From assembly GCA_965205245.1 (NCBI GenBank), contig CBDBGE010000005.1, positions 888,770-952,769 on the forward strand: DNA of 64,000 nt, in the 5' to 3' direction. How positions within the stretch are numbered: position 1 is the stretch's first letter; each line of letters opens with the position of its first letter. Below, in pieces: positions 6,398-25,128 of this stretch. This DNA is from Dehalococcoidia bacterium (GTDB lineage Bacteria; Chloroflexota; Dehalococcoidia; Lucifugimonadales; Lucifugimonadaceae). The translations under genes and the position numbers were made by a program. The notes below the pieces were generated by a model. The model saw only the letters and a program-made list of their open reading frames with translations. It did no database searches and was not told where the DNA came from.

Positions 6398-6400
6398 CAC

Positions 6401-7330: not shown

Positions 7331-7409
7331 TGTCGAGATCGGACCACCTGCTCTTTAACTCGCGCCGTGAGCGCGCTCAGGCCGGACGGTGATCGAAAGG
7401 ACCCAAGAC

Positions 7410-8282: not shown

Positions 8283-8317
8283 ACGGCAAGGAAATCACCA
8301 ACGGCTGTGACGGAAAC

Positions 8318-9187: not shown

Positions 9188-9220
9188 TTGATCGACGGTA
9201 AACGCGAAATTGATCGACAA

Positions 9221-10090: not shown

Positions 10091-10094
10091 GCCC

Positions 10095-11105
10095 ATGGTA
10101 GAAGCAGCCGAAAAGCAGGAAACCGTAGCTCAGGCAGACAGCCTGGTCCTGCAGGTGCGCGATCTGACCGTGCACTATCACACCCCGCTCGGGCCGGTGA
10201 AGGCGGTCGAGGGCATCAGCTTCGATCTCAACGAAGGTGAACGGCTCGGTTTGGTCGGCGAGTCCGGTTCAGGCAAGTCGACGACCGCGTTTGCCCTGAT
10301 GCGCCTGATCAAGCCGCCCGGTCAGATCGTCGCCGGTTCAGTCATGTACCGGGGCCGCGAGTTGCTATTTGCCTCACCCGAAGAGATACGGCAGATACGA
10401 TTTGCCGACATCGCCCTGATACCGCAAGGCGCCATGAATTCACTGAATCCGGTCATGAGAATCCGGGAGCAATTGTTCGACACGATTCGCGCTCATGAGA
10501 CCGGACCTTCAACACTGGAACTGACCGACCGGGTGAATGGACTGCTCGAATCTGTCGACCTGCCGCCGACCGTCGCGAACATGTTTCCTCACGAATTGAG
10601 CGGAGGCATGAAGCAGCGCGTCTGCATTGCCATGGCAACGGCCCTCAAGCCGATGATCATCATCGCCGACGAACCGACCAGCGCCCTCGACGTAGTTGTC
10701 CAACGCCAGGTCTTCGAAACGCTCACCCGCGTGCAGGGGGAACTCGGCGCGGCGGTCATTCTCGTCGGGCACGACATGGGCCTGATGGCGCAGTTCGCAG
10801 ACCGGATCAGCGTCATGTACGGCGGAAGGATCGCCGAGGTCTCGCCCGTAAAGGACCTATTCCGCGATCCTTTGCACCCCTACACGAGTGAACTCGTGCG
10901 AAGCCTTCCGTCCTTGGACAGGCGCCAACGTCTACGAGGCATTCCCGGCCTGCCCCCATCGCTGCTCCGACCGCCTCCCGGCTGCATGTTTCACCCCCGC
11001 TGCCCCAAGGTCATGGAGCAGTGCTCCACCGAAATACCCCTTCTGCGCGCGGTCCGTCCAGGCGGGTATACGGCCTGTCACCTGTATGAGGTGGAATCGT
11101 CGTGA
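10095..11105 (+). CDS. ABC transporter ATP-binding protein, DppD/OppD type
   Basis: Walker A GESGSGKST, signature LSGGMKQR, Walker B IIADEPTSALD, and a C-terminal oligopeptide-type extension (PGCMFHPRCP). Confidence 0.9.
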   Translation: MVEAAEKQETVAQADSLVLQVRDLTVHYHTPLGPVKAVEGISFDLNEGERLGLVGESGSGKSTTAFALMRLIKPPGQIVAGSVMYRGRELLFASPEEIRQIRFADIALIPQGAMNSLNPVMRIREQLFDTIRAHETGPSTLELTDRVNGLLESVDLPPTVANMFPHELSGGMKQRVCIAMATALKPMIIIADEPTSALDVVVQRQVFETLTRVQGELGAAVILVGHDMGLMAQFADRISVMYGGRIAEVSPVKDLFRDPLHPYTSELVRSLPSLDRRQRLRGIPGLPPSLLRPPPGCMFHPRCPKVMEQCSTEIPLLRAVRPGGYTACHLYEVESS

Positions 11106-12181
11106 CAGCCCTGCTCGAAGCCCGCAACGTCACGAAACGATTCGGCGGCGGACTGTTCAACAAGCAGTACACAGTGGCCGTGGACAACGTTTCGCTCTCC
11201 GTAGGGGGCACAACCCCCACGGTTACCGCTATCGCCGGTGAAAGCGGGTCGGGCAAGACCACGCTTGCGCGCATGTTGCTCAACATGGTGGAGCCCACCG
11301 AGGGCAGCGTGGAATACAAGGGCAAATCGCTCAGTACGCTCTCACCGCGCGAGCGGAAGGAGTTTCGTCGCGAAGTCCAGGCCATATTCCAGGACCCGTT
11401 CGAGGTGTTCAACCCTTTCTACAAGGTGGACGCCGTACTCAGCACGCCGGCCAGGAAATTCAACTTGGGCTCGTCCAGGGCGGAACGGCGGGAATTGATC
11501 GAACAGGCCCTGGAGATGGCTGGCCTGCTGCCCAATGAGACGTTGGGAAGGTACCCACATCAACTAAGCGGCGGTCAGCGTCAACGCGTAATGGTAGCGC
11601 GGGCCATGTTGATCAGACCGTCCGTCATCCTGGCGGATGAGCCGGTGTCGATGGTCGACGCCTCCCTGCGCGCCACCATACTGGACAGCCTGCTCCTGCT
11701 GAACCGGGACCTGGGAATATCGATCGTCTACATCACCCACGATCTGACGACAGCGTTCCAGGTCTGCGACAACATCATGGTCATGTACCAGGGATCGGCA
11801 GTCGAGGTCGGCAGCGTCGAAAAGGTGATCGGCCAGCCCGAACATCCCTACACGCGCCTGCTGGTGGAGTCGATCCCGTTGCCCGATCCGGAGCGGAAGT
11901 GGGGCGGAGTTGCAGCGGGCCGCAGCACATTGGAGGACCAGGTCCAGGGAACTTCCGGCTGTAAGTTTGCCCCTCGCTGCCCCGCAGTCATGTCGACATG
12001 TCTAGACAGTCTCCCGCCTCTCTTCAAGACCGCCGACCGCCAGGCTTCAGCGTGCTTCCTGTACGAGGATTCCCCGCCGGTAATGGGAGAGGACGCGGCC
12101 GGTATGCTCCTCACCGGCCGGCCCCCCGACTCGTCAACCGACCAGGAGGGACAATCCAACGGGACGCATGAGAACGGCTGA
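11102..12181 (+). CDS. ABC transporter ATP-binding protein, DppF/OppF type
   Basis: Walker A GESGSGKTT, signature LSGGQRQR, Walker B ILADEPVSMVD. The GTG start overlaps the upstream stop (GTGA). Confidence 0.9.
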   Translation: MTALLEARNVTKRFGGGLFNKQYTVAVDNVSLSVGGTTPTVTAIAGESGSGKTTLARMLLNMVEPTEGSVEYKGKSLSTLSPRERKEFRREVQAIFQDPFEVFNPFYKVDAVLSTPARKFNLGSSRAERRELIEQALEMAGLLPNETLGRYPHQLSGGQRQRVMVARAMLIRPSVILADEPVSMVDASLRATILDSLLLLNRDLGISIVYITHDLTTAFQVCDNIMVMYQGSAVEVGSVEKVIGQPEHPYTRLLVESIPLPDPERKWGGVAAGRSTLEDQVQGTSGCKFAPRCPAVMSTCLDSLPPLFKTADRQASACFLYEDSPPVMGEDAAGMLLTGRPPDSSTDQEGQSNGTHENG

Positions 12182-12199
12182 GATTCCTATCATCGAACA

Positions 12200-13135
12200 A
12201 TGAGCACGCATAGATTTTCACAGCCGCTCAACGCTGGCCTGCATCCCGGTAACGTCGTCAGGGTGACGTGGTGGGGCGACTCCACGATCGCCATTCAGAG
12301 CGCCGATCGAACGATCGTCATCGATCCGTCGGCGAACCTGGAGCAGGACGACTTCGATTTCGTGTTCTGCACGCACGAACACTACGCGCATTCCGACCCC
12401 GAAACAGTGGAACGCCTGACGCGCAGCAGCCGTTTCAAACGCATGTACATCGCACGTTCATGTCTCTACCCGTCCGACAAACCCCACGCTCGTTATCTGC
12501 GGTTCCTTAGCGACCCTCTCTGGCAAATAGAGAAGTACGTGATTTTCTATCCCAAGCACTACGATCACACCGTCCCCCGGGGCGCTGAAGGAGACACAGC
12601 GCGATTGGCCGGGACTGGCCGTGGAGCATGGTCGGAGGAGATCGCTTCAGGAGCCTGGTCGCCGGGCGGCGGCACTCCGCGGCCGTTCGCAGGGATCGAC
12701 GAGATTTGGACCGACGGCTGGCACATCGAAGGCATGGAAATGATCGGCGACGACCCCGAGGTGCCGTATCCCGTTCGTGGAGCCATGCCACAGTTGGGCT
12801 TCCTTATAGAAGACCTCAGTTCCGGCGTTTCGTTCTGCCACCTCGGCGCCAATCGAAAGTCCTACCCAGAGATGGAAGCGGTCCGCGGGCGAGTCGACAT
12901 CCTTTTCCTCCATGTCGGCAGAATGAGCCCCGGCGACGAGGATGAGGCGCTGAGACTCATTGCGCCGCGCTGCGTCGTGCCAGTGGGGTGGCGGACCGGG
13001 GTCGAGGCATCAGACGACGGTGATTTTGGGCCGGTGGTGAATCCCGAAAGTTACGTCCAGAGGCTGAATGAAGTCGCCGATGACTTGGGGTTCGCGGTGC
13101 GACAACTATCTCCCGGTGTGGCGTACGGAGTTTAG
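12200..13135 (+). CDS. MBL-fold (UlaG-like) protein with a degenerate metal motif
   Basis: VTWWGDSTIAIQSADRTIVIDP...FCTHEHYAHSDPE. The HxHxDH motif reads HEHYAH, with Asp replaced by Ala. Confidence 0.65.
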   Translation: MSTHRFSQPLNAGLHPGNVVRVTWWGDSTIAIQSADRTIVIDPSANLEQDDFDFVFCTHEHYAHSDPETVERLTRSSRFKRMYIARSCLYPSDKPHARYLRFLSDPLWQIEKYVIFYPKHYDHTVPRGAEGDTARLAGTGRGAWSEEIASGAWSPGGGTPRPFAGIDEIWTDGWHIEGMEMIGDDPEVPYPVRGAMPQLGFLIEDLSSGVSFCHLGANRKSYPEMEAVRGRVDILFLHVGRMSPGDEDEALRLIAPRCVVPVGWRTGVEASDDGDFGPVVNPESYVQRLNEVADDLGFAVRQLSPGVAYGV

Positions 13136-13195
13136 TCACGGCGACTTAATGCCTGGTGAAATACACGCTCACGCGGTCGATGAGGGAACATTGCG

Positions 13196-14143
13196 ATGAA
13201 TGAAAGCACACCCACTCTCGATGTCGGATTGGCCAACGGCTCCGACGTTCGGCTCACGTGGTGGGGCAACGCCACGGTGGTCATCGAGAATGGCGACCGC
13301 GCCATCGTCGTCGATCCATACGTTCACCCCCAACGCGGCAGGTTCCAGTACGCATTCTGCTCCCACGAGCACTACGACCACGCCTACCCCGAAACCGTGA
13401 AGCGCCTGGTCGAGGGAGAGGGATTCAAGAAGATCATTATTCCCAGGTCCTGCCTGTATCCCTCCACCCGCTTTTTCTCGCGCCAGTTGGCGTTCCTGGA
13501 ACCGGAGCAGTACATCGTGCTCTATCCGAAGCACTATGACAGGTCCGCCACCCGTACCGGTGACTCGAAGTACGTGGGCCACTCCGACGCCTGGACCGAA
13601 GGCGAAGAATCGATCTTCCCGGAACCCCGTGAACTGCACATGGACGATTGGCACGTCGAAGGGTTCGAGATGGTCGGAGAGGACCCTGAATTACCGTTTC
13701 CGCTCAGCGGCCCCATGCCGCAACTCGGCTTCTTCATAGAAGAACTGCAGTCCGGCGCGTCTTTCTATCACTTCGGCGACAACCACTGGACCTATGAGGA
13801 AATGTCCGCCGCCGCAGGAAGGCTCGACATAATGCTCCTGCCGATCGGCAAAATGGGGGTCGACGAGGACGCTCGGGCGATGGACCTGATGAAGCCCAAG
13901 ATCGTCATCCCGATCCACTGGAGATACGAAGGGGAGGACTACCCCATTCCCGCCCTGTATCAACGACACGAGCCGCCGGACCAACAGATCCGCGGCTACC
14001 ACCTGCCGCACCCGGGCGACCCACCATACCCCGGCCAGCCGCATAGCCCATTCGAGTACATCGAGCAGTTGGAAGAGCGCGCTCGCGAACGCGGCATCAC
14101 CGTGGCCCAGATCAAGGCGGGAATCCCCCACCGCGTAGTGTGA
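13196..14143 (+). CDS. MBL-fold (UlaG-like) metallo-hydrolase
   Basis: LTWWGNATVVIENGDRAIVVDP...FCSHEHYDHAYPE has an intact HxHxDH motif. It is a paralog of 12200..13135. Confidence 0.7.
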   Translation: MNESTPTLDVGLANGSDVRLTWWGNATVVIENGDRAIVVDPYVHPQRGRFQYAFCSHEHYDHAYPETVKRLVEGEGFKKIIIPRSCLYPSTRFFSRQLAFLEPEQYIVLYPKHYDRSATRTGDSKYVGHSDAWTEGEESIFPEPRELHMDDWHVEGFEMVGEDPELPFPLSGPMPQLGFFIEELQSGASFYHFGDNHWTYEEMSAAAGRLDIMLLPIGKMGVDEDARAMDLMKPKIVIPIHWRYEGEDYPIPALYQRHEPPDQQIRGYHLPHPGDPPYPGQPHSPFEYIEQLEERARERGITVAQIKAGIPHRVV

Positions 14144-14205
14144 TCGCCGTTCGTTCTGCCAACCGACGTGGCCCGCTGTGATCTTCCGTAGACACGGAGT
14201 GTGAA

Positions 14206-15585
14206 ATGTCTGACAAACTCATTAGCCCTGATGCAGCCGAGGAACTTCGACGTTCCGCGCTTGCCCACCTTTGGACTCACAACGGCGCGTGGAACGAGAT
14301 GGCCGAAGAGGGCCTGCCGTTCATCGCTGTACGCGGCAAGGGCGTGCGCATCGTCGACTCGCTCGGGCGGGAATGGATGGACGTGAGCGCCGGGTACCAG
14401 TGCGTCACGGCCGGCCACGGCCGGACCGAGTTAGCGCAAGTTGCCTACGACCAGATGTCGCAACTGGCCTACTTCCCCAATTCCGGCGCCACGCCACCGT
14501 CGATCAAACTGGCCGAAAAACTGGCCCAGATCACACCGGGGAATTTGAACCGTTCGTTCTTCGTCAACGGCGGGTCGGACGCCGTCGAGACGGCTGTCAA
14601 GCTGGCGCGCGCCTACCACAAGCGGAACGGAGAAGCAGGCCGCTACAGGATCATCAGCCGGAAGGGCTCGTACCACGGCGCCCTTGGACTGACCACTTGG
14701 CTCGGCGGGCGGGACATCAACGAGCAACGAGACTACATTCCCGCCTACCCGGGGATGCTGTACGCGCCCCAGCCCAATCCCTACCGGTGCGAATACGGTG
14801 GCCAGACGCCCTCCGAATGCGCCGAGTTGTGCGCAAACGCCATCGAGGAGCTGATCTTGTTTCACGGGCCAGAGACGGTGGCCGCGGTCGTCGCCGACCC
14901 CATTCCCGGCAACGCCGCCGTACCCGGTCCGGAATACTGGCCCCGGCTGCGGGAAATCTGCACGAAGTACGGGGTCGTCCTGATCGGAGACGAGGTGATA
15001 ACGGCCTGGGGACGTACCGGAAGGATGTTTGCAGTGGAGCACTGGGACGTGGTCCCAGACGTCATGACCGTCGCCAAGGGTCTCTCGAGCGCCTACGCCC
15101 CGGTCGGCGCGGTGATAGCCACTGAAGACATAGCGTCGGTATTTTCCGGAGGCGAGCAACACCGGCCGTTCATCCATGCGCTCACGTTCGGCGGCCACCC
15201 CGTCACCACGGCGGTCGCTCTCCGAAACATCGAGATCATCGAACGGGAGGACCTGCCCGGGAACGCGGCCGTACAGGGCAAGTATATGGCCGACAGGTTC
15301 GCCGAAATGCAGGAAAAGTATCCCGTCATCGGACACGTACACGCAATTGGCCTCCAGTTGGGCCTGGAACTGGTGAAGGACCGCGCCACCAAAGAACCGA
15401 TAGCCTCCGAATTCCGCGACATGTTGTCTTCAGAGTTGGAAAAACGGCGACTACTTGTAAGGGCGGGCACGGCAGGTTTCACCCTCTACCCACCCATCTC
15501 GATCTCGTCCGACGAAACGCAAGAACTGGCCGACAAGTTGGACGAGTCGTTCGCTGTAGTTTCGGCAAACCTCGGCCTGAATTAG
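14206..15585 (+). CDS. class-III (omega) PLP-dependent aminotransferase
   Basis: 459 aa with FVNGGSDAVETAVKLAR, LIGDEVITAWGRTGRMFA and the PLP-Lys context MTVAKGLSS. Confidence 0.85.
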   Translation: MSDKLISPDAAEELRRSALAHLWTHNGAWNEMAEEGLPFIAVRGKGVRIVDSLGREWMDVSAGYQCVTAGHGRTELAQVAYDQMSQLAYFPNSGATPPSIKLAEKLAQITPGNLNRSFFVNGGSDAVETAVKLARAYHKRNGEAGRYRIISRKGSYHGALGLTTWLGGRDINEQRDYIPAYPGMLYAPQPNPYRCEYGGQTPSECAELCANAIEELILFHGPETVAAVVADPIPGNAAVPGPEYWPRLREICTKYGVVLIGDEVITAWGRTGRMFAVEHWDVVPDVMTVAKGLSSAYAPVGAVIATEDIASVFSGGEQHRPFIHALTFGGHPVTTAVALRNIEIIEREDLPGNAAVQGKYMADRFAEMQEKYPVIGHVHAIGLQLGLELVKDRATKEPIASEFRDMLSSELEKRRLLVRAGTAGFTLYPPISISSDETQELADKLDESFAVVSANLGLN

Positions 15586-15623
15586 CAGATAATGATGAGT
15601 GAAGGGCTCAAAGAGAAATCTTG

Positions 15624-15836
15624 ATGCACAAGTACGAGATCATCATCTACTGGAGCAACGCAGATGGAGCCTTCGTAGCCGAGGTCCCTGAGCTCCAGGG
15701 ATGTGCTGCGCACGGCGACACGCAGGAAGCGGCGTTAGCCGAAATATGCCAGGCGATGGACCTGTGGGTCGAAACAGCTCGTGAATTCGGCGATAGAGTC
15801 CCGGAACCAAAAGGCGAACGGCTGATGCTGGCGTAA
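15624..15836 (+). CDS. HicB-family (UPF0150) antitoxin-like protein, no HicA partner seen
   Basis: 70 aa. YEIIIYWSNADGAFVAEVPELQGCAAHGDTQEAALAEICQAM is a typical HicB/UPF0150 fold signature. Confidence 0.7.
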   Translation: MHKYEIIIYWSNADGAFVAEVPELQGCAAHGDTQEAALAEICQAMDLWVETAREFGDRVPEPKGERLMLA

Positions 15837-15858
15837 CGCGCCCGCGTTTCGTATGAGT

Positions 15859-15864
15859 TAGAGT
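15859..15864 (+). promoter_or_regulatory. -10-like box TAGAGT, module A
   Basis: It sits at the same position (41 nt before the mini-ORF ATG) as the boxes in modules B and C. No clear -35 box. Confidence 0.3.
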
Positions 15865-15905
15865 GAGACAGTCGTAAATCTCATTTCGTTGCCACCCGCG
15901 TCCAC

Positions 15906-15986
15906 ATGACTCTCTCAATCCACATCCACCCTGCTCTCACGGCCACTTGCCGTGAGCGTTCCATTATTGGGAGGTACCAGGCGTAA
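15906..15986 (+). CDS. 26-codon mini-ORF A (leader peptide or small peptide), not in the ORF track
   Basis: MTLSIHIHPALTATCRERSIIGRYQA*. It aligns without gaps to mini-ORFs B and C and shares their TAA stop. Confidence 0.5.
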   Translation: MTLSIHIHPALTATCRERSIIGRYQA

Positions 15987-16017
15987 CCCGCAGGATGAAA
16001 GCGGCAACTGGACGTAA

Positions 16018-16042
16018 CCTCCCGAAGTCGGGAGGTTTTTTT
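16018..16042 (+). terminator. intrinsic terminator, module A leader
   Basis: CCTCCCG-aagt-CGGGAGG followed by TTTTTTT. Confidence 0.8.
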
Positions 16043-16138
16043 GTGAGGGCGTGTAACCAAAAAAACTTGGCGTTTCACGCCACAGTCTCGAACTCTCGTT
16101 ACGAATGATCACCTGAGCACTGTGCGGAATCGAATCCT

Positions 16139-16969
16139 ATGGAATCTTCGAGTGGCCTACTGCGGGCCGCGCACACAGCCGGCGGCGAGACTGTTGCCGT
16201 GATACGGGCCGTGGCAGGCGCCATGCGGGGTCAGTTCAGCATGAGCCGAAGGACCTTCCAGGACCTTCTGCCAACGGTCACGCACCCGTCCTTCGCCCTG
16301 ATACTGATGGCTGTGTTCGCACACGCGCGACGCGAAGACCTTGCTTCATATGCCCTGGTTGCCCCGTTCCTCATGAGCGTAGCTACGACCGCGGTCTTCG
16401 TGGCGAGCGAAGTGTTGACCCGCGAACGTGACTTTCAGACGCTCGAGTTGTCGGTTGCGAGCCCGGCGTCCTTTCCAGCCGTCCTCTTCACCCGGATCAT
16501 GGTCATCACCCTGATATCGCTAGTCGGCATCGTCGAAAGCTGGCTGATCATACGATTCGTGTTCGGCGCGACCGTCACTATCCATCATCCTGAAGTGTTC
16601 GTGGCGACCATGCTTGTGACCGCGTTCGCCTCGGGCGGCACGGCTCTGATCCCGGCGGCGTTGTTCTGTTTCGCGCAGGCGGCGCGCACTTATCAGAATT
16701 CAATCTTGTATCCCGTCCTGCTGGTCTCGGGCGTTCTGGTACCGGTCGCCGTGCTTCCGGACTGGCTGGAGCCGGTCAGCCGGCTGGTTTACCTGTACTG
16801 GTCGGCGGACCTCCTCAGGGACTCCATGCAGACCGCAACGCCCGAAGGAGTCCTGTGGGGACTGGGAATTATGGCGATTCTGGGCGCGGGATCTGCCTTC
16901 ATTGGCGGCGCGCTGATCATCAGGATGCTCAACTACCTCAGGCAGGAAGGCAGGCTTGGGATCCTGTGA
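16139..16969 (+). CDS. ABC-2 type exporter permease, module A subunit 1
   Basis: 276 aa with about 6 TM segments. It is a full-length homolog of 18106..18936 and 20095..20925. Confidence 0.85.
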   Translation: MESSSGLLRAAHTAGGETVAVIRAVAGAMRGQFSMSRRTFQDLLPTVTHPSFALILMAVFAHARREDLASYALVAPFLMSVATTAVFVASEVLTRERDFQTLELSVASPASFPAVLFTRIMVITLISLVGIVESWLIIRFVFGATVTIHHPEVFVATMLVTAFASGGTALIPAALFCFAQAARTYQNSILYPVLLVSGVLVPVAVLPDWLEPVSRLVYLYWSADLLRDSMQTATPEGVLWGLGIMAILGAGSAFIGGALIIRMLNYLRQEGRLGIL

Positions 16970-17754
16970 ACACCCTGCGCCTCTTCCGATATAGCTTGTT
17001 GGTGGGAATAAGGGAATTCACCTATCTCTGGGACTGGAAGACATGGGCAGGAGGTTGGGTTATCCAGATGCTTGCCTCGGCGGCCCTATTCTCACTCTTC
17101 GCCCGGCTGTTCAATTCTCCCGAACACGAGCAGTTCCTCCTGGTTGGGAACGCGGTGGTCGTTGGCGCAATTGGTGTGGGCTGGGCGATTCCAATGGCCA
17201 CGAGCGACCGGTGGGCCGGGACCTACCCTTTGCTTGTGGTTGCGCCTGCCAGCCTGGTACCCGCGATAGTCGGTCGGACTTCGATCTGGCTGCCCTCCGG
17301 TGTCGCGACTTCGCTCCTGACTTTCCTCATCCTGGGCAGTCTGTTCGATCTGGCGCTGTCCTGGCCGAACTCGCTTCTTATCGTTCCCCTGGTTGCCCTA
17401 ACGTGCGCCAGCGCCTATTGCTTTTCACTCTTCCTCGGTTCCGCGGTCATTCGCATACCCCAAATGCCAACCCTGTTTCTTGTAACCATGACAATGGTGT
17501 TGAGAGCGTTCTGCGGGGTCAGCGTGCCGATAACCTTTTGGCCCGGGTACGTGCAGTTCATGGTCAAGTTGCTCCCGTTGACCCATGGCCTCCAGGCGAT
17601 CCGATTGGTCCTGGACCAGGCCCCTGCCGGCGCGGTTCTCCAGGCCGCCGCTCTCGAGGCCGCGGTGGGGCTGGGTTGGATAACCTTAGCCGTCCTGGCC
17701 ATGGACTTGATGGCCAACGCCGGCCGCAAAGACGGCTCCATCGAATTTGTTTGA
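16966..17754 (+). CDS. ABC-2 type exporter permease, module A subunit 2
   Basis: The GTG start overlaps the upstream stop (GTGA), as in module B. VNTLRLFRYSLLVGIREFTYLWDWKTW... is homologous to 18933..19721. Confidence 0.85.
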   Translation: MNTLRLFRYSLLVGIREFTYLWDWKTWAGGWVIQMLASAALFSLFARLFNSPEHEQFLLVGNAVVVGAIGVGWAIPMATSDRWAGTYPLLVVAPASLVPAIVGRTSIWLPSGVATSLLTFLILGSLFDLALSWPNSLLIVPLVALTCASAYCFSLFLGSAVIRIPQMPTLFLVTMTMVLRAFCGVSVPITFWPGYVQFMVKLLPLTHGLQAIRLVLDQAPAGAVLQAAALEAAVGLGWITLAVLAMDLMANAGRKDGSIEFV

Positions 17755-17823
17755 GTCGCGAGGGCAAAAAACGGGGCTCAGCAGCGCCACCGTGACAAAC
17801 AACCCTCGACCACGGTAAAACTG

Positions 17824-17832
17824 TGGTAGTGT
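17824..17832 (+). promoter_or_regulatory. extended -10-like box TGgTAGTGT, module B
   Basis: TGn plus TAGTGT, ending 41 nt before the mini-ORF ATG. Confidence 0.4.
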
Positions 17833-17873
17833 GGAAAGACGTTAAGTCTCACACCCCTGCCACCATTGTCCGA

Positions 17874-17954
17874 ATGACATTCCTCCTTGACATCCACCGA
17901 GTCCTCATTGTGACCAGCTATGGGTGGCACGCGTTTGGGAGGGACCAATCGTAA
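17874..17954 (+). CDS. 26-codon mini-ORF B, not in the ORF track
   Basis: MTFLLDIHRVLIVTSYGWHAFGRDQS*. Confidence 0.5.
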   Translation: MTFLLDIHRVLIVTSYGWHAFGRDQS

Positions 17955-17985
17955 TTGGCGTGCGGAAGTCGTTGGCTGATTGGGA

Positions 17986-18010
17986 CCTCCCGAAATCGGG
18001 AGGTTTTTTT
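17986..18010 (+). terminator. intrinsic terminator, module B leader (also ends the module A transcript)
   Basis: CCTCCCG-aaat-CGGGAGG followed by TTTTTTT. Confidence 0.85.
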
Positions 18011-18105
18011 GTTAGGAGGCGTAAGTGAACACGAACCTGGATTCTGTCGCCGTCCTCTCGTCGCTGACCAGGGAATAACGTGAGTACCTTGCGGGATCAA
18101 CTGAC

Positions 18106-18936
18106 ATGAGCGTGAGGAATGGCCTGTCGCGGGCCGGACATATGGCCATGGACGGTCCCATGAGCGTCGCCAGACCGCTGGTCGGCGCCACCCGGGCCCA
18201 ATTTCGCATGAGTCGCCGGGACATCCAGGACCTCACCATGGGGATCACGCAGCCGGCATTTACGTTGGTCCTGATGGCCATCTTCAAATACGCGGGCCGC
18301 GATGACCTTGCTCCCTACGCTCTGATCGCTCCGATGCTCATGGGCGTCGGGGGAATGGCAGTGTCCGTCGCCAGCGAGTTACTGACCCGCGAGCGTGAAT
18401 TCCAGACGCTCGAGCTGTCCGTGGCATGCCCCGTTCCATTTCCCCTGGTCATTCTTCCCCGAATACTGGTGGTCACATCGATCTCCCTGTTCGGAATTGT
18501 GGAAAGCTGGTTGATTATCCGCTTCGTCTTCGGCGTTGATGTCACGGTCCACCATTACGGGCTATTCGCTGCGACGATGGTCCTGACCGCGTTCGCTGCC
18601 GGTGGGACGGCCATGATCCCCGCGGCGCTGTTCTGTTTCGCCCAGGCTGCCCGGACTTTCCAGAACTCGATTACTTACCCCGCGTACCTCTTCTCGGGCA
18701 TCCTGGTACCTATCGCCGCGTTCCCGGACTGGCTCGAGCCGGTCAGTCGTCTGATCTTCCTTCACTGGTCCGGGGCCCTTCTTACGGAGTCGATGCAGCC
18801 ATCCGAGCCCGATGGAGTCCTGCTAAAGCTGGGCATCATGGCGGCTCTTGGCATTGGAGCGGCCTTTATCGGGGGCGCGCTAATGGCCAGAATGCTCGAT
18901 TTCCTGAGGCGTGAGGGGAGGTTGGGGATTCTGTGA
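18106..18936 (+). CDS. ABC-2 type exporter permease, module B subunit 1
   Basis: 276 aa polytopic protein, paralog of 16139..16969. Confidence 0.85.
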   Translation: MSVRNGLSRAGHMAMDGPMSVARPLVGATRAQFRMSRRDIQDLTMGITQPAFTLVLMAIFKYAGRDDLAPYALIAPMLMGVGGMAVSVASELLTREREFQTLELSVACPVPFPLVILPRILVVTSISLFGIVESWLIIRFVFGVDVTVHHYGLFAATMVLTAFAAGGTAMIPAALFCFAQAARTFQNSITYPAYLFSGILVPIAAFPDWLEPVSRLIFLHWSGALLTESMQPSEPDGVLLKLGIMAALGIGAAFIGGALMARMLDFLRREGRLGIL

Positions 18937-19721
18937 ATTACCTACGCCAGTTCCGATTTGGCCTGATGGCAGGCATAGGGGAATTCACGTTCATGTGGAA
19001 CTGGAAGACCTGGTTCGGTGGCTGGTTGGTCCAGATGCTGGCGCAAGCCGCTTTCTTCTCGTTGGTCGCCAGGTTGTTCGATTCGCCTGAGCACGAACGG
19101 TTCTTGCTGATCGGTAACGCCCTTGCCGTCGGCGTACACACGGCCTGCTGGGGCATTGTGTCGACCACGTGGGACAGGTGGACAGGCGCTTACCCCCTTC
19201 TCGTAATTGCGCCGACCAGCATGGTACCTGCGGTCATCGGGAGAACCTCCGTTTGGCTGGCTTCGGCCGTGGCAACTTCGCTTTTCACATTCCTGATTCT
19301 TGCCGCGATTTTTGATCTGGGCTTGCCATGGCCTGAAGCTTTGGTCCTTATCCCCCTCGTGTTCTTGACGTGTGCAAGCACTTTTTGTTTCTCGGTATTC
19401 ATCGGCGCACTCATAACGCGTCAGAGCTACCTCCGAAACCTTGTCATGGGAATTGTGAACGTGGTACTGCGAGCCTTCTGTGGGATAGCGGTCCCCATAG
19501 CCTTTTGGCCCGACTACGTGCAGTTCGTAGTCCGGTTGTTGCCCATAACCCACGGCCTGGAGGCCATACGGTTGGTGCTCGACAAGGGACCTGCAACCGA
19601 AATTCTGCTGGCCGCTGCCCTGGAAGCCGCAGTTGGGCTTGGGTGGATCGTACTCATAGTCCTGGTGATGGACCGCATGGCCGATTCCGGTCGCGCCAAC
19701 GGTTCGATCGAGTTCATCTGA
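18933..19721 (+). CDS. ABC-2 type exporter permease, module B subunit 2
   Basis: 262 aa polytopic protein. The GTG start overlaps the upstream stop. Confidence 0.85.
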   Translation: MNYLRQFRFGLMAGIGEFTFMWNWKTWFGGWLVQMLAQAAFFSLVARLFDSPEHERFLLIGNALAVGVHTACWGIVSTTWDRWTGAYPLLVIAPTSMVPAVIGRTSVWLASAVATSLFTFLILAAIFDLGLPWPEALVLIPLVFLTCASTFCFSVFIGALITRQSYLRNLVMGIVNVVLRAFCGIAVPIAFWPDYVQFVVRLLPITHGLEAIRLVLDKGPATEILLAAALEAAVGLGWIVLIVLVMDRMADSGRANGSIEFI

Positions 19722-19810
19722 TAATCGCAAGTACGAGGAGGCTCTCCTCCCGCGTATTGCCAGCCGTACGGCCTGAACATGACATCCACCCCACACCTGC
19801 ACCAATTCTG

Positions 19811-19819
19811 TGGTAGCGT
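19811..19819 (+). promoter_or_regulatory. extended -10-like box TGgTAGCGT, module C
   Basis: TGn plus TAGCGT, ending 42 nt before the mini-ORF ATG. Confidence 0.4.
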
Positions 19820-19861
19820 GAAATGGTCGCGGATCTCATTCCCCCGCCGCCCCTTGCCAAA

Positions 19862-19942
19862 ATGATCTTCCGAATTGACTGCCATTCCGTTCTCGTGGCG
19901 AACTGCTATGAGTGGTCCACTTTTGGGAGGAATCAATCGTAA
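19862..19942 (+). CDS. 26-codon mini-ORF C, not in the ORF track
   Basis: MIFRIDCHSVLVANCYEWSTFGRNQS*. Confidence 0.5.
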   Translation: MIFRIDCHSVLVANCYEWSTFGRNQS

Positions 19943-19974
19943 TTGACGTTTGGACAACGGCAACTGAGTTGGAA

Positions 19975-20000
19975 CCTCCCGAAATCGGGAGGTTCTTTGT
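19975..20000 (+). terminator. intrinsic terminator, module C leader (weaker U-tract)
   Basis: CCTCCCG-aaat-CGGGAGG followed by TTCTTTGT. Confidence 0.7.
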
Positions 20001-20094
20001 TAGAGGGCGTCATTGAACACAAAGCTGGGTTCTGTCGCCTTCCCTTCGTCACTGTATTAACAAGTCAAGTGGGCACGGTGCGGAAACAACTGAC

Positions 20095-20925
20095 ATGAAC
20101 TTGCGGAGTGGCCTGCTGAGGGCCGGACAACTAGCTGTGGGCGGGCTCCTGGCCGTCGTGCGGCCGTTGCTTGGTTCCATCAGGGCCCAGATCACCACTA
20201 CCCGGCGTGACATTCACGACGTCACTATGGGTATCACGCAGCCCGCATTTACGTTTGCCCTGATGGCGGTCTTCAAGTACGCCGGGCGCGAAGACTTGGC
20301 CCCTTACGCCCTGATCGCCCCGATGCTCATGGGTGTGGGCGGCATGGCAGTGTCGGTGGCGAGTGAGGTCATGACACGGGAGCGTGACTTTCAGACTCTC
20401 GAGTTGACCGTCGCAAGCCCAGCGCCGATCCCCGTGATCATCTTCTCCCGGATCATGGTCATCACGTCAATCTCCCTTCTCGGGATTGTCCAAAGCTGGC
20501 TGATCGTCAGGTTTGTCTTTGGTGTGGACGTCACGATCCACCATCCCTGGTTGTTCGCGGCGACGTTGCTGCTGACCGCGTTCGCGGCCGGAGGGACCGC
20601 ACTGATCACCGCGGCCCTGTTCTGTTTCGCGCAAGCAGCCAGGACATTCCAGAACTCGATCACGTTCCCGGCCTATCTCTTCTCCGGGATCCTGGTACCG
20701 ATAGCGGCGTTTCCTGATTGGCTGGAACCGGTAAGCCGGGTGATCTTCCTTTACTGGTCGGGGACCCTGCTCAGGGACGCGATGCAATCGACGACCCCCG
20801 AAGGAGTCTTCGTGAAGCTGGGCATCATGCTGATCCTGGGCGGAAGCGCGGCCTTGATAGGAGGGGCGTTGATTGTTCGCATGCTCAATTACCTCAGGCG
20901 GGAAGGCACGCTGGGGGTCCTGTGA
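20095..20925 (+). CDS. ABC-2 type exporter permease, module C subunit 1
   Basis: 276 aa, paralog of 16139..16969 and 18106..18936. Confidence 0.85.
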   Translation: MNLRSGLLRAGQLAVGGLLAVVRPLLGSIRAQITTTRRDIHDVTMGITQPAFTFALMAVFKYAGREDLAPYALIAPMLMGVGGMAVSVASEVMTRERDFQTLELTVASPAPIPVIIFSRIMVITSISLLGIVQSWLIVRFVFGVDVTIHHPWLFAATLLLTAFAAGGTALITAALFCFAQAARTFQNSITFPAYLFSGILVPIAAFPDWLEPVSRVIFLYWSGTLLRDAMQSTTPEGVFVKLGIMLILGGSAALIGGALIVRMLNYLRREGTLGVL

Positions 20926-21710
20926 ACACGCTGCAACGCATCCGCTTTGGTCTCCTCGTGGGCACGCGGGACTTCACCCTCTATTGGAACTGGAAAACGT
21001 GGTTCGGTGGCTGGATGGTCCAGATGGTGGCCCAGGCAGCCTTCTTCTCCATGTTTGCCAGGCTGTTCGACTCGCCTTACCACGAGCAGTACCTACTTAT
21101 AGGCAATGCAGTCGCTGTCGGCGCGCAAGCGGTGTGTTGGACAATTCCATCCTCGACGTGGGACCGTTGGACTGGAACGTATCCCCTCCTGGTTATTGCG
21201 CCTGCCAGTCAATTCCCAGCCGCCGTCGGACGGAACTCCGTTTGGATGCTATCCGGCATCGCCACTACGCTCGTGGTGTTCGTCATTCTGGGCGCGGTCT
21301 TCAACCTGTCTCTGCCATGGCCCAACACGCTGTTCCTGGTTCCGTTGGTCGTGTTGACGCAGGTCAGCACGTTCTGCTTCGCACAATTCCTCGGGGTCTT
21401 TGTCATACGCCAATACCAAATGCGAAACCTGTTACTTGGCACGGTGACAATGGGCGTAAGAGCGTTCTGCGGCGTAAGTGTGCCTATCGCCTTCTGGCCG
21501 GGCTCTGTCCAGTTCGTCGTCAAATTGTTGCCCATCACCCACGGGCTCGAGGCTATCCGGCTCTTGCTGGACGGGGCGCCCGCACATGCCATTCTCCAAG
21601 CCGCCGCGTTAGAAGCAGTGGTGGGCACGGGTTGGCTTGTCCTTGCAATGTTGGCGATGGATCGCATAGCCGAGTCCGGCCGCAAAAGCGGTTCAATCGA
21701 GTTCATTTGA
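20922..21710 (+). CDS. ABC-2 type exporter permease, module C subunit 2
   Basis: The GTG start at 20922 was chosen by homology (VNTLQRIRFGLLVGTRDFTLYWNWKTW...). The longer track ORF 20718..21710 is an out-of-gene extension. Confidence 0.85.
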   Translation: MNTLQRIRFGLLVGTRDFTLYWNWKTWFGGWMVQMVAQAAFFSMFARLFDSPYHEQYLLIGNAVAVGAQAVCWTIPSSTWDRWTGTYPLLVIAPASQFPAAVGRNSVWMLSGIATTLVVFVILGAVFNLSLPWPNTLFLVPLVVLTQVSTFCFAQFLGVFVIRQYQMRNLLLGTVTMGVRAFCGVSVPIAFWPGSVQFVVKLLPITHGLEAIRLLLDGAPAHAILQAAALEAVVGTGWLVLAMLAMDRIAESGRKSGSIEFI

Positions 21711-21735
21711 AAACCACATGTACGGGGAGGCAGCC

Positions 21736-22677
21736 ATGAACGCAGTAACGACCACGGACCTCCGCAGGGTCTACAAGAGCAGGGACGGCAATCCCGATGT
21801 AGTCGCGCTCGACCGCGTCTCGATGGACATCAGGGAGGGCGAGGTCCATGGGCTCCTGGGACCGAACGGCGCAGGCAAGACTACCCTGGTGAAGGTGCTG
21901 TCTACCGTCCTCCTCCCTACGAGCGGGTCCGCTTCGATACTTGGACACGACGTGGTCCGCGAGACCAAGGCGGTCCGGCCCCTGATCGGCATCGTCCTGG
22001 GCGGCGACCGCGGGCTTTACTGGCGACTGACCGGCCGTCAGAACCTGGAGTACTGGGCTGCGCTCTACAACGTCCCCGCCGGAACGGCGAAGGAACGCAT
22101 CCCTAAGTTGCTGGAAATGGTCGGCCTCACCGACCGCGCCGACTACCTCGTCGAGGGCTACTCCCGCGGAATGCGGCAGCGCATCCACCTTGCCAGGGGG
22201 CTGGTCGGCGACGCGCGCGTGCTTTTCCTCGACGAGCCGACCGCCGGCATGGACCCGTTGGCTTCCCGCGATTTTCGCAACCTCGTCGGGAATCTACGCT
22301 CCGAGGGCCGGACGGTCCTGCTGACTACCCACGATATGGCGGAGGCGGAAGCGGTGTGCGATCGGGTAACGCTCATCGACAAGGGGAAAATCATCGCGGT
22401 CGAGACCCCGCGGTCGCTCAGCAGACTGATCGCCGGCAACGAGCGGATCGACTTCGAGGGCGGTCCGGACGGATTGAAGAACTCTCTACAAACACTGCCG
22501 GGCGTGACTTCAGTGAACCCGCTGCCCGATGGCGGCAACCGCGTGGAACTAGAGGGGGATGACGCCAAGCAGGGCGTCCTGAAGGCCCTCGTAGACGCCG
22601 GAGTCACGACGATATCCACGTCGCGGCCAAGTCTCGAAGAGGTCTACGTCCGGGTGATCGGAGACAAGACGGAATGA
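21736..22677 (+). CDS. ABC-2 exporter ATP-binding protein (DrrA/CcmA-like), the only NBD in the cluster
   Basis: A strong RBS (GGGGAGG) lies 5 nt before ATG 21736. Walker A GPNGAGKTT, signature YSRGMRQR, Walker B LFLDEPTAGMD. Confidence 0.9.
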   Translation: MNAVTTTDLRRVYKSRDGNPDVVALDRVSMDIREGEVHGLLGPNGAGKTTLVKVLSTVLLPTSGSASILGHDVVRETKAVRPLIGIVLGGDRGLYWRLTGRQNLEYWAALYNVPAGTAKERIPKLLEMVGLTDRADYLVEGYSRGMRQRIHLARGLVGDARVLFLDEPTAGMDPLASRDFRNLVGNLRSEGRTVLLTTHDMAEAEAVCDRVTLIDKGKIIAVETPRSLSRLIAGNERIDFEGGPDGLKNSLQTLPGVTSVNPLPDGGNRVELEGDDAKQGVLKALVDAGVTTISTSRPSLEEVYVRVIGDKTE

Positions 22678-22678
22678 G

Positions 22679-22873
22679 CTAACGCGGTCTGCCGGATCGC
22701 GGTCCTAACCGGCGTACGGTTCTGACTAGCCCGCGCAGTAACCGGATCACAAAACGGACGCGTGGCACGACCCAAAACAGTGGATTGCGCCCTGAACGGC
22801 TTCTTCGGGCTTCCAGGTCCGCCTTCGCCGCATCATAGTCGCGCATCAAATGCTGTTGATCGGGCGATGGCAA
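22679..22873 (-). CDS. small Arg-rich protein of unknown function (paralog of 22937..23152)
   Basis: 64 codons from a TTG immediately after an in-frame TAG. It shares PxPD..QQ...(D/E)Y...NP(L/V)F...L(V/I)RTVRR with its neighbour. Start is uncertain. Confidence 0.45.
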   Translation of the reverse strand: MPSPDQQHLMRDYDAAKADLEARRSRSGRNPLFWVVPRVRFVIRLLRGLVRTVRRLGPRSGRPR

Positions 22874-22936
22874 CTAGGCAGACAAATTACGATTCTTCCT
22901 GCGGTACCGCGTTGAAAAGGTGATCGGATACCCGAA

Positions 22937-23152
22937 CTACTGCTTCCGACGTACTGTTCTGATTAGCCAACGAGCGCTGTCGAAAAGCGCCCGCCCGAAG
23001 GCCAAAAACAGCCGCATCAGGGTCGTGATCAGGAACACTGGGTCGCCAACCCACGGCATCCGCCTCCGAGATTTATGACCCTTCTTAAATTCACGATATT
23101 CGTGGATGTAATACTGCTGATTTTGTAGATCTGGAGGTGGCAAGTTGACCAT
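22937..23152 (-). CDS. small Arg-rich or membrane-associated protein of unknown function
   Basis: 71 aa. An RBS (AAGGAA) lies about 8 nt before the ATG. It has a hydrophobic core PVFLITTLMRLFLAF and the C-terminus ...WLIRTVRRKQ. Confidence 0.6.
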   Translation of the reverse strand: MVNLPPPDLQNQQYYIHEYREFKKGHKSRRRMPWVGDPVFLITTLMRLFLAFGRALFDSARWLIRTVRRKQ

Positions 23153-23187
23153 GCTGCTGTTCCTTTTCTTGTGGCTACCTTAGCAAG

Positions 23188-25128
23188 TCAGCGGTAAACC
23201 GTCGCCGCCACGGCCAGATGGTCTGAGGCGAGGCTGTCGTGGGTGGAATAGTCCCGTACCTTCAGGTCCGGACTGGCGAAAACGTAGTCGATACGCTCCC
23301 ACGGCGCGTCCGCCGGATAGGTGTATCCGTCGTAGGTCGCTCCGGAAGCGACGAGCGCGTCGTTGAATCCGGCGTTGGCGATTAACAGCATCTCCGGGTG
23401 GTCCGGGTGCGCGTTGAAGTCTCCCAGCAACACCGTGGTCCGGCCGCTCACCACGGCCCCGAGCACCGCTTCCGCTTGAGGGACCCTGATCGCCGAGTCG
23501 CCGTCACCGGAGTGGAAGTGCGTGGCCACCACGTCTATCGTCTCCCCGCCGTCCACGTCGATCTCCACCGTCAGAAATCCCCTGTCCAGTCGAAGCGTGT
23601 CGTTGTTCGGCATTTCGTGGTTTTGGCGGCTGACAATCGGGAGCCGGCTCAACACCGCATTGCCCCACACCGGATCGGCTGCCGGACCCCACACGTAGTC
23701 CATTTCGAGACGCTGGGAGAGCCATTCGAGCATATCCACCGATCCGTTGATCGCCCAACCTCTCGAAACCTCCTGCAGCGCGACGATGTCGGGCTCCTCG
23801 GCCTCGATGACCCTTGCCATCTCCTCCAAACCGTGGCGGCCGTGAACATCGAATCCCTGGCGGAGGTTGTAGGTCATCACCCGAACCGGGAATCCGTCGC
23901 CCGGGGGCGGAGTCACGTCCTTCCACCGCACCATCATGACCACAGGAAGTAACAGCAGCAGCAGCGCCGCGATACCGGCAGCCCTCGTAACCGACACCCC
24001 CGTCTCGCGCCGACCCATGGCTGCCCGGACCGCCGCCAGGCCGATCAACAAAGCGGCCAGGGGACGAATCACTCCCTGCGGCGCCAGCACATCGATCTGG
24101 TAGGTCGCGTAGTAGATGAACAGGAAGACCAGTAATAACAGCATGCCGACGCCCATCCAGGTCGAAACCCCGCGGCCGGAAGACTCGCCATTGGATTCGA
24201 CCACTGACCTCGCGATGGCCACTAGCAATACTGCGATCACCACCTGGCCGACAAGCATTGCCCCGGCGCCTGCGAAGCCCGACGTATCTGAGGCAACTAC
24301 CGCTATCAGCACACCCCCCAGCAGCAGAACTACCTGCCAGGGCAGGCCCCTACTTTGCCTCGTCAACTCGACCGCTACCACTATTCCGGCCAGGTTGGCC
24401 GCGAGGACCCACGCGAAAACAGCGGGCTGTGGCCAGCCGATCAACGCGGTTTGGTGGGCCACGTTCTGGAACAGAAGGAACTGCAAAACGAGAACCGGCC
24501 CAATGGCCACATACGGCCATGCGATTGCTGCGGACGCCTGGACCTGCTGCTGGCTGTTGACTCTCGCGAGCCGCCACAGGAGCAATCCCTGGGCGGCGGC
24601 CAGGCCCACCACGACGACGTAGACCCCTATGCCCTGAGCCCACGACAGGTCGACCGTGCCGAAAACGCCCTTGACCGCGGTCTCTGCGGAAAGGCCCAGC
24701 AACAGCGCGATCACCGCGTGTGTGGCGGCCTCCCCCTTGCCTGCCGATCGGATCGACCGAAACAGGAGCGGCAGGGACCAAAGGAACACAATCGCTCCAA
24801 GGATCGAGAGGCCTAAGCCGACGGGAAGAGATGAGACGAATTTTTCGGCCAGCCACAACAGGGATAAGAGGCCGACAACGATCGGCAAGGCATTGCGCGG
24901 TCCAAGTGTTCGTCGAACGACCGGCGCAAGAAACCCGCACAGGAACACCACCAGGCCTAACGCGCCAACCATGACCGGGTCTATCTCATGCACCTGTGTC
25001 AGGTTGACGGCCATCCCGACGAACAGCATCCGCAAAAGTTGGACGCCGAACATCACCGTCAGGGCTCCAAACAACAGAGCCGCCAATGACGTCCGGTTAA
25101 CTCTCCAAACGGTGTTCAGACGTCTCAC
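23188..25128 (-). CDS. polytopic membrane protein fused to a C-terminal endonuclease/exonuclease/phosphatase (EEP) domain
   Basis: About 400 aa with 10 or more predicted TM stretches, followed by VRVMTYNLRQGF...PDIVALQEV...LLGDFNAHPD...SDHLAVAATV, which are EEP signature blocks. Confidence 0.75.
   Translation of the reverse strand: MRRLNTVWRVNRTSLAALLFGALTVMFGVQLLRMLFVGMAVNLTQVHEIDPVMVGALGLVVFLCGFLAPVVRRTLGPRNALPIVVGLLSLLWLAEKFVSSLPVGLGLSILGAIVFLWSLPLLFRSIRSAGKGEAATHAVIALLLGLSAETAVKGVFGTVDLSWAQGIGVYVVVVGLAAAQGLLLWRLARVNSQQQVQASAAIAWPYVAIGPVLVLQFLLFQNVAHQTALIGWPQPAVFAWVLAANLAGIVVAVELTRQSRGLPWQVVLLLGGVLIAVVASDTSGFAGAGAMLVGQVVIAVLLVAIARSVVESNGESSGRGVSTWMGVGMLLLLVFLFIYYATYQIDVLAPQGVIRPLAALLIGLAAVRAAMGRRETGVSVTRAAGIAALLLLLLPVVMMVRWKDVTPPPGDGFPVRVMTYNLRQGFDVHGRHGLEEMARVIEAEEPDIVALQEVSRGWAINGSVDMLEWLSQRLEMDYVWGPAADPVWGNAVLSRLPIVSRQNHEMPNNDTLRLDRGFLTVEIDVDGGETIDVVATHFHSGDGDSAIRVPQAEAVLGAVVSGRTTVLLGDFNAHPDHPEMLLIANAGFNDALVASGATYDGYTYPADAPWERIDYVFASPDLKVRDYSTHDSLASDHLAVAATVYR

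Follow-up and report, generated by a model that had tools for sequence, protein, structure and literature searches.

Ribosome occupancy of a short open reading frame (ORF) in the leader of an mRNA is known to refold the leader and so turn on a resistance or efflux gene, as in the ermC, cat and cmlA leaders and the lmo0919 and msr leaders (Term-seq). In bmrB-bmrCD of Bacillus subtilis, translation of the leader ORF gates an intrinsic terminator located before an ATP-binding cassette (ABC) exporter, and ribosome-targeting antibiotics act as inducers (PMC4191407). For vmlR, ribosome occupancy of an upstream short ORF is likewise reported to lead to RNA refolding that turns on the resistance gene (PMC9226507). 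The stretch analyzed here (the window) comprises 64,000 nucleotides (nt) of a Dehalococcoidia bacterium (contig CBDBGE010000005.1). Reading positions 15500-20400 of the window, we found a 26-codon ATG..TAA frame on the forward strand ahead of each of three ABC-2 permease pairs, with the positions and peptides that an earlier model-made reading of this DNA, termed here the sequence-only reading, had given. We consider it rather likely that each of these frames is part of a ribosome-mediated (leader-ORF) transcription attenuator resembling those of trp and bmrB.

The three leaders share a common plan. A -10-like box, TAG(A/T/C)GT, lies 41-42 nt 5' of each ATG. Approximately 30 nt separate the end of the ORF from the stem of a GC-rich hairpin (CCUCCCGAAnUCGGGAGG), which is followed by a U-run, and approximately 150 nt lie between each ORF and the first gene of its permease pair. 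The sequence-only reading had noted the boxes ahead of the mini-ORFs and a terminator just 3' of each, and we located them in copies A, B and C. In addition, each leader carries a hairpin within the ORF (P1) and two strands, termed segments 2 and 3, that are able to form an antiterminator.

To compare these leaders with others, one genome per species was scanned, which yielded five Dehalococcoidia metagenome-assembled genome (MAG) loci with permease homologues. Further loci came from a protein search followed by twelve contig look-ups, and copies were reached through ENA, NCBI and Logan contigs, with hits in the ENA assemblies ERZ25067264, ERZ25072076, ERZ25069580 and ERZ28763718. Leader copies were collected with an nhmmer profile, giving 13 distinct copies from 7 genomes or assemblies: three each in the window and L001, one each in L002, L005 and L006 (= L007), and two each in L012 and L016. 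L001 is the syntenic orthologue, its permeases being 88-94% identical to those of the window, and related genomes carry from one to three permease-pair units. JGI metagenomes scanned with permease peptide patterns and with a leader DNA pattern gave no match either way. The elements of the three window leaders are as follows, with counts referring to the 13 copies.

15859-15864, forward strand: -10-like box of leader A, TAGAGT, a candidate promoter of presumed activity; homologous box conserved in 13 of 13 copies
15906-15986, forward strand: leader ORF A, 26 codons, MTLSIHIHPALTATCRERSIIGRYQA then stop, read from the sequence; ATG and TAA invariant, free of indels in 13 copies
15936-15956, forward strand: hairpin P1 of leader A, codons 11-17, CUCACGGC-loop-GCCGUGAG, from pairing and covariation in 13 copies
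15969-15982, forward strand: segment 2 of leader A, GGGAGG + CCAG, codons 22-26, 5' strand of the antiterminator; GGGAGG invariant
16008-16023, forward strand: segment 3 of leader A, CUGG...CCUCCC, shared by the antiterminator (as its 3' strand) and the terminator (as its 5' arm), from fold energies and covariation
16016-16042, forward strand: intrinsic terminator A, AACCUCCCGAAGUCGGGAGGUU + U7, from the terminator scan and pairing
17827-17832, forward strand: -10-like box of leader B, TAGTGT, preceded by TGG, read from the sequence
17874-17954, forward strand: leader ORF B, 26 codons, MTFLLDIHRVLIVTSYGWHAFGRDQS then stop, read from the sequence
17904-17924, forward strand: hairpin P1 of leader B, from pairing and covariation
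17937-17950, forward strand: segment 2 of leader B, GGGAGGGACCAAUC; its CCAAUC:GAUUGG pairing differs from CCAGUC:GAC(C)UGG by compensatory change
17977-17990, forward strand: segment 3 of leader B, GAUUGGGACCUCCC, from fold energies and covariation
17982-18010, forward strand: intrinsic terminator B, from the terminator scan and pairing
19814-19819, forward strand: -10-like box of leader C, TAGCGT, preceded by TGG, read from the sequence
19862-19942, forward strand: leader ORF C, 26 codons, MIFRIDCHSVLVANCYEWSTFGRNQS then stop, read from the sequence
19892-19912, forward strand: hairpin P1 of leader C, from pairing and covariation
19925-19938, forward strand: segment 2 of leader C, GGGAGGAAUCAAUC, from the invariant GGGAGG and covariation
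19967-19980, forward strand: segment 3 of leader C, GAGUUGGAACCUCCC, from fold energies and covariation
19971-19998, forward strand: intrinsic terminator C, with an interrupted U-run, UUCUUU, read from the sequence and from pairing

The terminator scan reported copies A and B; copy C, in which the T-run is broken (TTCTTT), is absent from the scan output. An upstream in-frame ATG, 13 codons earlier, is present in copy C alone.

The codons for G22 and R23 form the sequence GGGAGG, which is invariant in all 13 copies, repeats the terminator's 3' arm letter for letter and is the complement of the 5' arm, CCUCCC. The antiterminator helix extends this complementarity, with GGGAGG-nn-YCARUC pairing with GAYUGR-nn-CCUCCC (alignment columns 101-114 with 142-156). 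In this helix 90% of cells are paired and three pairs show compensatory changes, for example CCAAUC:GAUUGG in copy B versus CCAGUC:GAC(C)UGG in L001b. The covariation score exceeds that of all 500 shuffles, and partners shifted by 1-3 columns pair in just 34-46% of cells. P1 is formed by codons 11-17 (CUC AUG GCn ... nGC UAU GAG) and consists of eight base pairs with a constant 5-nt loop. It is paired in 97% of cells, with compensatory changes at two pairs; in the P1 of copy A, U-A has become C-G and G.U has become G-C. The terminator, a GC-rich hairpin of 9-11 base pairs and a U-run, is also 97% paired across the copies.

The predicted energies of the two expression-platform helices are -16 to -28 kcal/mol for the antiterminator hairpin and -15 to -20 kcal/mol for the terminator (-19.5 versus -15.8 in copy A, -28.1 versus -16.9 in copy B). 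Pairing of segment 2 with C/U-rich sequence upstream is predicted to gain a further 6-15 kcal/mol, and the full-length minimum-energy fold includes the terminator in 11 of the 13 copies. A fixed 1:2 helix, which RNAalifold on three copies had placed between codons 2-4 and GGGAGG, was dropped when the 13 per-sequence folds were found to place the partner variably.

The reading frame is preserved, with ATG, TAA and the length of 26 codons present in 13 of 13 copies. Gaps in the 13-copy alignment (A6) occur at columns 1, 26, 144 and 175 only, and none falls inside the ORF. The sequence-only reading had observed that ORFs A, B and C align without gaps while their flanks do not, which is correct, and had proposed following the frame into homologous loci, where it is kept without an indel. 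It had further listed M1, H8, L11, G22, R23, Q25 and the TAA stop as invariant. These are indeed identical in all three window copies; similarity among A-C says little on its own, since these copies are paralogues that arose by tandem duplication. Apart from ATG and TAA, 7 of the 110 columns outside stems (6%) are invariant across the 13 copies, and the chance that the six ATG/TAA columns are all invariant is roughly P = 7e-8.

The peptide shows a different pattern. By parsimony, codon positions 1, 2 and 3 have undergone 55, 51 and 43 changes, and their mean column entropies are 0.77, 0.66 and 0.65. The non-stem columns of the ORF have changed 2.2-2.9 times per site, compared with 2.9 in the 5' untranslated region (UTR) and 3.0 in the spacer. 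Mean amino-acid identity is 0.47 in frame, versus 0.53 and 0.47 in the two wrong frames, and orthologous leader pairs differ by 8-14 nonsynonymous and 0-3 synonymous codon differences. In the same genome pair the adjacent permease genes have the normal coding pattern, with divergence of 0.06-0.11, 0.01-0.05 and 0.27-0.33 at positions 1, 2 and 3. Because codon positions change evenly, wrong frames are equally conserved and nonsynonymous exceed synonymous differences, we conclude from these alignments that the peptide evolves at about the neutral rate wherever the RNA helices impose no constraint. P1 accounts for L11 and the C/S-Y-E region, which are encoded by its stem nucleotides, and the constant G22 and R23 are encoded by stem nucleotides of the antiterminator. 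As judged from sequence comparison, conservation acts on the RNA and not on the peptide, and the selected features are the start codon, the stop codon, the spacing between them and the RNA helices.

Accordingly, the label "conserved mini-ORFs" given by the sequence-only reading fits the frame (13 of 13) but not the peptide, on which there is no selection at the amino-acid level. The synonymous differences it cited as a sign of a conserved peptide (CAC/CAT, GTC/GTT, CAG/CAA) are present, and its examples of conservative replacements are accurate, but both are unrepresentative, given the preponderance of nonsynonymous differences and the even spread of substitutions across codon positions. The comparison of synonymous with nonsynonymous change that it had suggested yields no indication of coding-type selection. 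A tandem residue repeat, as would accompany an amino-acid-sensing run of codons, is absent from all 13 peptides, and the 13 copies share no amino-acid motif under purifying selection such as might mark an arrest or sensor peptide.

The promoter is inferred, and so are ORF translation, the direction in which the switch works and the signal that induces it. We propose that the elements operate as follows. The box, a putative promoter element, has the form TAG(C/A/T)(G/T)T in 13 of 13 copies and is preceded by TGn in 12 of 13, in the style of an extended -10. Transcription would begin a few bases past it and produce a C/U-rich 5' UTR of approximately 35 nt, followed by the 26-codon ORF. Codons 22-26 (GGG AGG AAY CAR NCG, segment 2) could then pair with segment 3 (GAYUGG-AA-CCUCCC), located 24-30 nt past the stop codon, to form the antiterminator. 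Alternatively, segment 3 could pair with the second GGGAGG (segment 4), which is followed by the U-run, to form the terminator.

The position of the ribosome would decide between these structures. The footprint of a ribosome extends approximately 12-15 nt in each direction from its P site, and because it reaches this far back, a ribosome at the stop codon would cover GGGAGG. With its P site on codon 26 and UAA next, such a ribosome would mask segment 2, segments 3 and 4 would pair, and transcription would end before the permeases (OFF). In contrast, a ribosome slowed or stalled at roughly codons 5-16 would melt P1 and any upstream pyrimidine-rich partner and leave segment 2 free, so that the antiterminator would form first and RNA polymerase would enter the permease pair (ON). 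When no ribosome is present, segment 2 would be held by the upstream C/U-rich sequence and termination would be favored, as predicted thermodynamically. About 11 nt after P1 there is a U-rich stretch that leads into a G, and by analogy with the his and trp leaders this arrangement could be a pause site that synchronizes RNA polymerase and ribosome. Selection is seen neither on single residues nor on a run of codons, so the switch probably reports the speed of the lead ribosome in general. Our guess, made by analogy with bmrB-bmrCD, is that a DrrAB-like ABC-2 exporter would be induced when translation is impaired, as ribosome-targeting compounds might do.

That the ORF matters to this mechanism is suggested by ATG and TAA, which are invariant amid variable surroundings, by the constant length, and by a second class of ORF that stops at the same place. 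The latter occurs at the distant loci L003 and L004, where a 37-codon ORF, unrelated in sequence to the 26-codon class, has an AGGAG Shine-Dalgarno sequence 7 nt 5' of its ATG and a better -10 box, TGCTAATAT. This ORF ends in ...UCC GGG AGG ACC UAG, with the stop at the 3' edge of the antiterminator strand and a terminator next. The folds of both loci have antiterminator and terminator alternatives as in the 26-codon class. The proposal of a regulatory leader coupled to the terminator, one of two interpretations in the sequence-only reading, is supported in outline, with the covarying antiterminator over the last five codons, the frame kept in every copy and the second ORF class speaking for it.

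Several observations weigh against such an attenuator. A Shine-Dalgarno sequence is missing from the 26-codon class, and translation of these ORFs is presumed. The sequence-only reading had pointed this out for the leaders and the permease genes alike; because approximately 40% of the long ORFs in the window, including those of the permeases, also do without one, we regard the absence as a weakness that is not disqualifying. A stop-free frame is not in itself significant, as 7-12% of simulations that re-place the substitutions on the tree leave 13 of 13 copies open (P 0.07-0.12), and the +1 frame is interrupted by a stop in just 1 of 13 copies, which makes it nearly as open. The 13 copies contain no regulatory codon run and no conserved stall motif, which is why the inducing signal given above is a guess. 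The upstream partner of segment 2 (the anti-antiterminator) varies in position among copies in the per-sequence folds, and because it has no fixed position, the OFF state in the absence of a ribosome is a thermodynamic prediction only. Many homologous permease operons have no leader, namely those of L008-L011, the first pair of L006, L013, L015 and L017-L024, and leaderless homologous permease operons were encountered in six of the twelve contig look-ups (P0013, P0055, P0083, P0037, P0041, P0043, P0038 and P0029 are listed). Finally, the sample of 13 + 2 sequences comes from one bacterial class and includes many paralogues, which limits statistical power.

Some of these points would be expected if the element were instead a pure RNA switch, that is, a riboswitch or the target of an RNA-binding protein or small RNA, in which the P1 region senses and the 26-codon frame is untranslated or irrelevant. 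We judge this rather unlikely. Conservation that tracks RNA helices rather than codons, an open frame that is insignificant by itself and 26-codon ORFs without a Shine-Dalgarno sequence all agree with it, as does the recurrence of CAUCCAC and GAGUGGUC in L003 and L004 in another reading frame relative to GGG AGG. However, ATG and TAA would then have no reason to stand as invariant islands amid variable sequence, nor would junction and loop lengths within the ORF be expected to stay constant next to flanks with indels. A pure RNA switch also leaves the distant class unexplained, in which another ORF, preceded by a good Shine-Dalgarno sequence, stops at the corresponding distance from GGGAGG. 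Beyond the two expression-platform helices the element has just one conserved hairpin, of eight base pairs, and no multi-helix core that could form a ligand pocket. It also lacks a match to a curated Rfam family: scans of 8 kb and of 291 nt against Rfam 15 up to E = 10 returned only a sub-threshold Phe_leader (RF01859), whose score of 17.6-27 bits compares with a gathering score of 55 and whose alignment rests mainly on the terminator. An undescribed class of riboswitch is possible.

It is improbable, in our view, that there is no switch at all and that the hairpin and U-run merely end the upstream gene, with the permease promoter further 3' and GGGAGG and the ORF carried along as duplication baggage. 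In a plain terminator, an invariant upstream GGGAGG and a covarying antiterminator extension would be useless, and the -10-like box, ATG and TAA are kept in all copies on a tree where neutral columns change approximately 2.7-3 times each. Nevertheless, the terminators do come after genes, namely the hicB-like one, permease A2 and permease B2, and our assignment of the promoter is only a consensus match, a sigma-70 scan having given no site at the -10-like boxes.

We also considered that the serial attenuators might be non-redundant, the A, B and C leader types answering different cues so that the cell picks a permease pair for the shared ATPase. The three leader types are older than the species splits. 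In such an arrangement a factor or ligand might bind the structured P1 region inside the ORF and block the ribosome. If this were true, the exporter would be governed by a combinatorial, RNA-gated switch, a hybrid of riboswitch and leader-peptide attenuator. We think this a long shot.

The other interpretation in the sequence-only reading, small peptides acting as cargo or partners of the exporter with a leaky terminator setting stoichiometry (we extended it to immunity peptides), has the location of the ORFs directly 5' of each permease pair and their constant length of 26 residues to recommend it, but is highly implausible in view of the even changes across codon positions, an in-frame identity no better than out of frame, the excess of nonsynonymous differences between orthologues beside permeases that diverge by only 0.01-0.11 at positions 1 and 2 versus 0.27-0.33 at position 3, constant residues (L11, G22, R23 and neighbors) that are stem nucleotides, the absence by eye (prediction tools unused) of a signal sequence, double-glycine cleavage motif or hydrophobic span from the listed peptides, and the absence of modification enzymes next to the ORFs. 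The two interpretations, which the sequence-only reading had called inseparable from sequence alone, are separated by comparative sequence.

The genes served by the leaders, and the gene ahead of them, are listed below.

16139-17754, forward strand: ABC-2 permease pair A, genes 16139-16969 and 16966-17754, PF01061 matches
18106-19721, forward strand: ABC-2 permease pair B, genes 18106-18936 and 18933-19721, PF01061 matches
20095-21710, forward strand: ABC-2 permease pair C, genes 20095-20925 and 20922-21710, 63-66% identical to pair A
21718-22677, forward strand: ATPase with ABC_tran and DrrA1-3_C domain matches, the sole one of the cluster, 8 nt after pair C
15621-15836, forward strand: HicB-like gene, 71 residues, ahead of leader A
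L012 9487-9699; L016 3530-3742 and 7547-7759; L023 5409-5621: homologues of the HicB-like gene

The three permease pairs are paralogues, 63-66% identical. A series of three switches with the sole ATPase behind the third is uncommon, yet it results from the tandem duplication of a unit made up of promoter, leader, terminator and permease pair. In most related loci a HicB-like/UPF0150 gene of 70-71 residues is located directly 5' of the first leader, with no HicA partner visible; in L006 (approximately 7352-7560) its frame is broken by an in-frame stop. The flanks of the exporter are syntenic in the window (approximately 5400-15600 and 21718-25128), L006, L008, L009 and L012. On the 5' side they include a peptide ABC importer (SBP_bac_5, BPD_transp_1, ABC_tran + oligo_HPY), cyclase genes, two to three Lactamase_B_3 proteins and a class-III aminotransferase. 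On the 3' side they include a thiamine pyrophosphate (TPP) enzyme, an Exo_endo_phos protein and an OpuAC transporter. At L016 4033-6605 there is a further ABC-2 operon, an unrelated one composed of an ABC2_membrane_6 pair and an ATPase. It has no leader of this type and is inserted after a duplicated segment consisting of an aminotransferase fragment and the HicB-like gene.

Each terminator is separated from its permease ATG by approximately 95 nt (16043-16138, 18011-18105 and 20000-20094), and these spacers end in a conserved GTGCGGAAnCAAnTGAcATG and have no Shine-Dalgarno sequence. They may serve an additional layer of control, at the level of translation, or contain an unusual signal for initiation. 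Elsewhere in the window, the start of the gene at 57443-58225 (reverse strand) reads GGGAGGGACCAAATG, which is near-identical to the end of leader B, GGGAGGGACCAAUCGUAA. Since the end of leader B resembles a real start context, the antiterminator strand also looks like a strong Shine-Dalgarno sequence.

The motif (G)TGACATCCAC (window 19780-19789 and 17888-17897) occurs both approximately 29 nt 5' of the -10 box of the second and third leaders and, again, in codons 5-8 of several ORFs. The upstream placement is also seen in L001, L005, L006 and L016. We rejected the motif as an operator repeat, since its 8 matches in the window, versus 4 expected, are no enrichment. In first copies the sequence that aligns with the upstream occurrence is the 3' end of the hicB-like gene (GGCGTGAC...), so that occurrence is probably a leftover of duplication.

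Attenuator-less permease operons (L008 9930-10003, L010, L011, L023 5960-5983 and L006 7950-7992) contain ...CAGTCCCGTAATCG... and then CCCTCCCGAA directly 5' of the ATG. With CGTAA and CCUCCC present but neither GGGAGG nor a terminator, this sequence resembles a residue or variant form of the leader, and these operons may represent loss of the switch.

To our knowledge, little experimental work has been done on gene regulation in Dehalococcoidia, a class that is mostly uncultured. If the attenuator operates as proposed, transcription-translation coupling of the trp or bmrB type would be at work in this class, and the ABC-2 exporter cluster would be marked as inducible, possibly by translation stress. 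The serial layout, in which one ATPase lies behind the last of three switches, is unusual and amenable to testing. The element is absent from Rfam and could be added as a cis-regulatory family. For annotation it carries a caution, in that a gap-free mini-ORF may be maintained by RNA helices and by constraints on start and stop, without selection on the peptide.

Among described regulatory leaders, antitermination of the ANTAR, T-box and RAT types was considered and set aside, as the layout does not fit: the element has only one hairpin, whose loop is 5 nt long, and lacks both a specifier and a T-box sequence. Arrest peptides such as TnaC, SecM and MifM are likewise small ORFs 5' of a regulated gene, and TnaC, with 24 residues, is of similar length. 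However, arrest peptides require conserved residues in the exit tunnel, whereas amino-acid conservation here is no higher than in the wrong frames. The antibiotic-responsive leaders have in common with our proposal a short upstream ORF and a choice of RNA fold made by ribosome occupancy. The erm and cat leaders differ in that they free a ribosome-binding site, and thus act on translation, and need motifs in the nascent peptide, whereas the output here is termination and no motif is selected.

The amino-acid leaders (trpL, hisL, pheL, leuL, thrL and ilvL) are closer. Like them, the present element has a short leader ORF with the terminator after it, three mutually exclusive pairings (1:2, which here is a predicted one, the 2:3 antiterminator and the 3:4 intrinsic terminator) and a stop codon sited such that a finishing ribosome would mask segment 2. 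In contrast to them, it has no run of codons for a single amino acid and controls exporter permeases rather than biosynthetic enzymes. Moreover, the well-known examples are enterobacterial, while the host here belongs to the Dehalococcoidia (Chloroflexota); there is no sequence homology, and the 1:2 partner is not fixed.

BmrCD consists of fused half-transporters, whereas the ABC-2 permeases described here are separate from a single ATPase, the sequences are non-homologous and three switches lie in series. Induction by antibiotics has been demonstrated for bmrCD and is a guess for the present cluster. The bmrB ORF has 53 codons and contains the terminator (PMC4191407), whereas the leader ORFs in the window have 26 codons and the terminator follows them. 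In both systems, though, translation of a leader ORF would gate a terminator located before a two-gene set of ABC exporter components, slow translation would favor the antiterminator, and the peptide sequence is not considered to be the sensor (PMC4191407). The element would be an uncatalogued case of a known kind, the leader-ORF attenuator.

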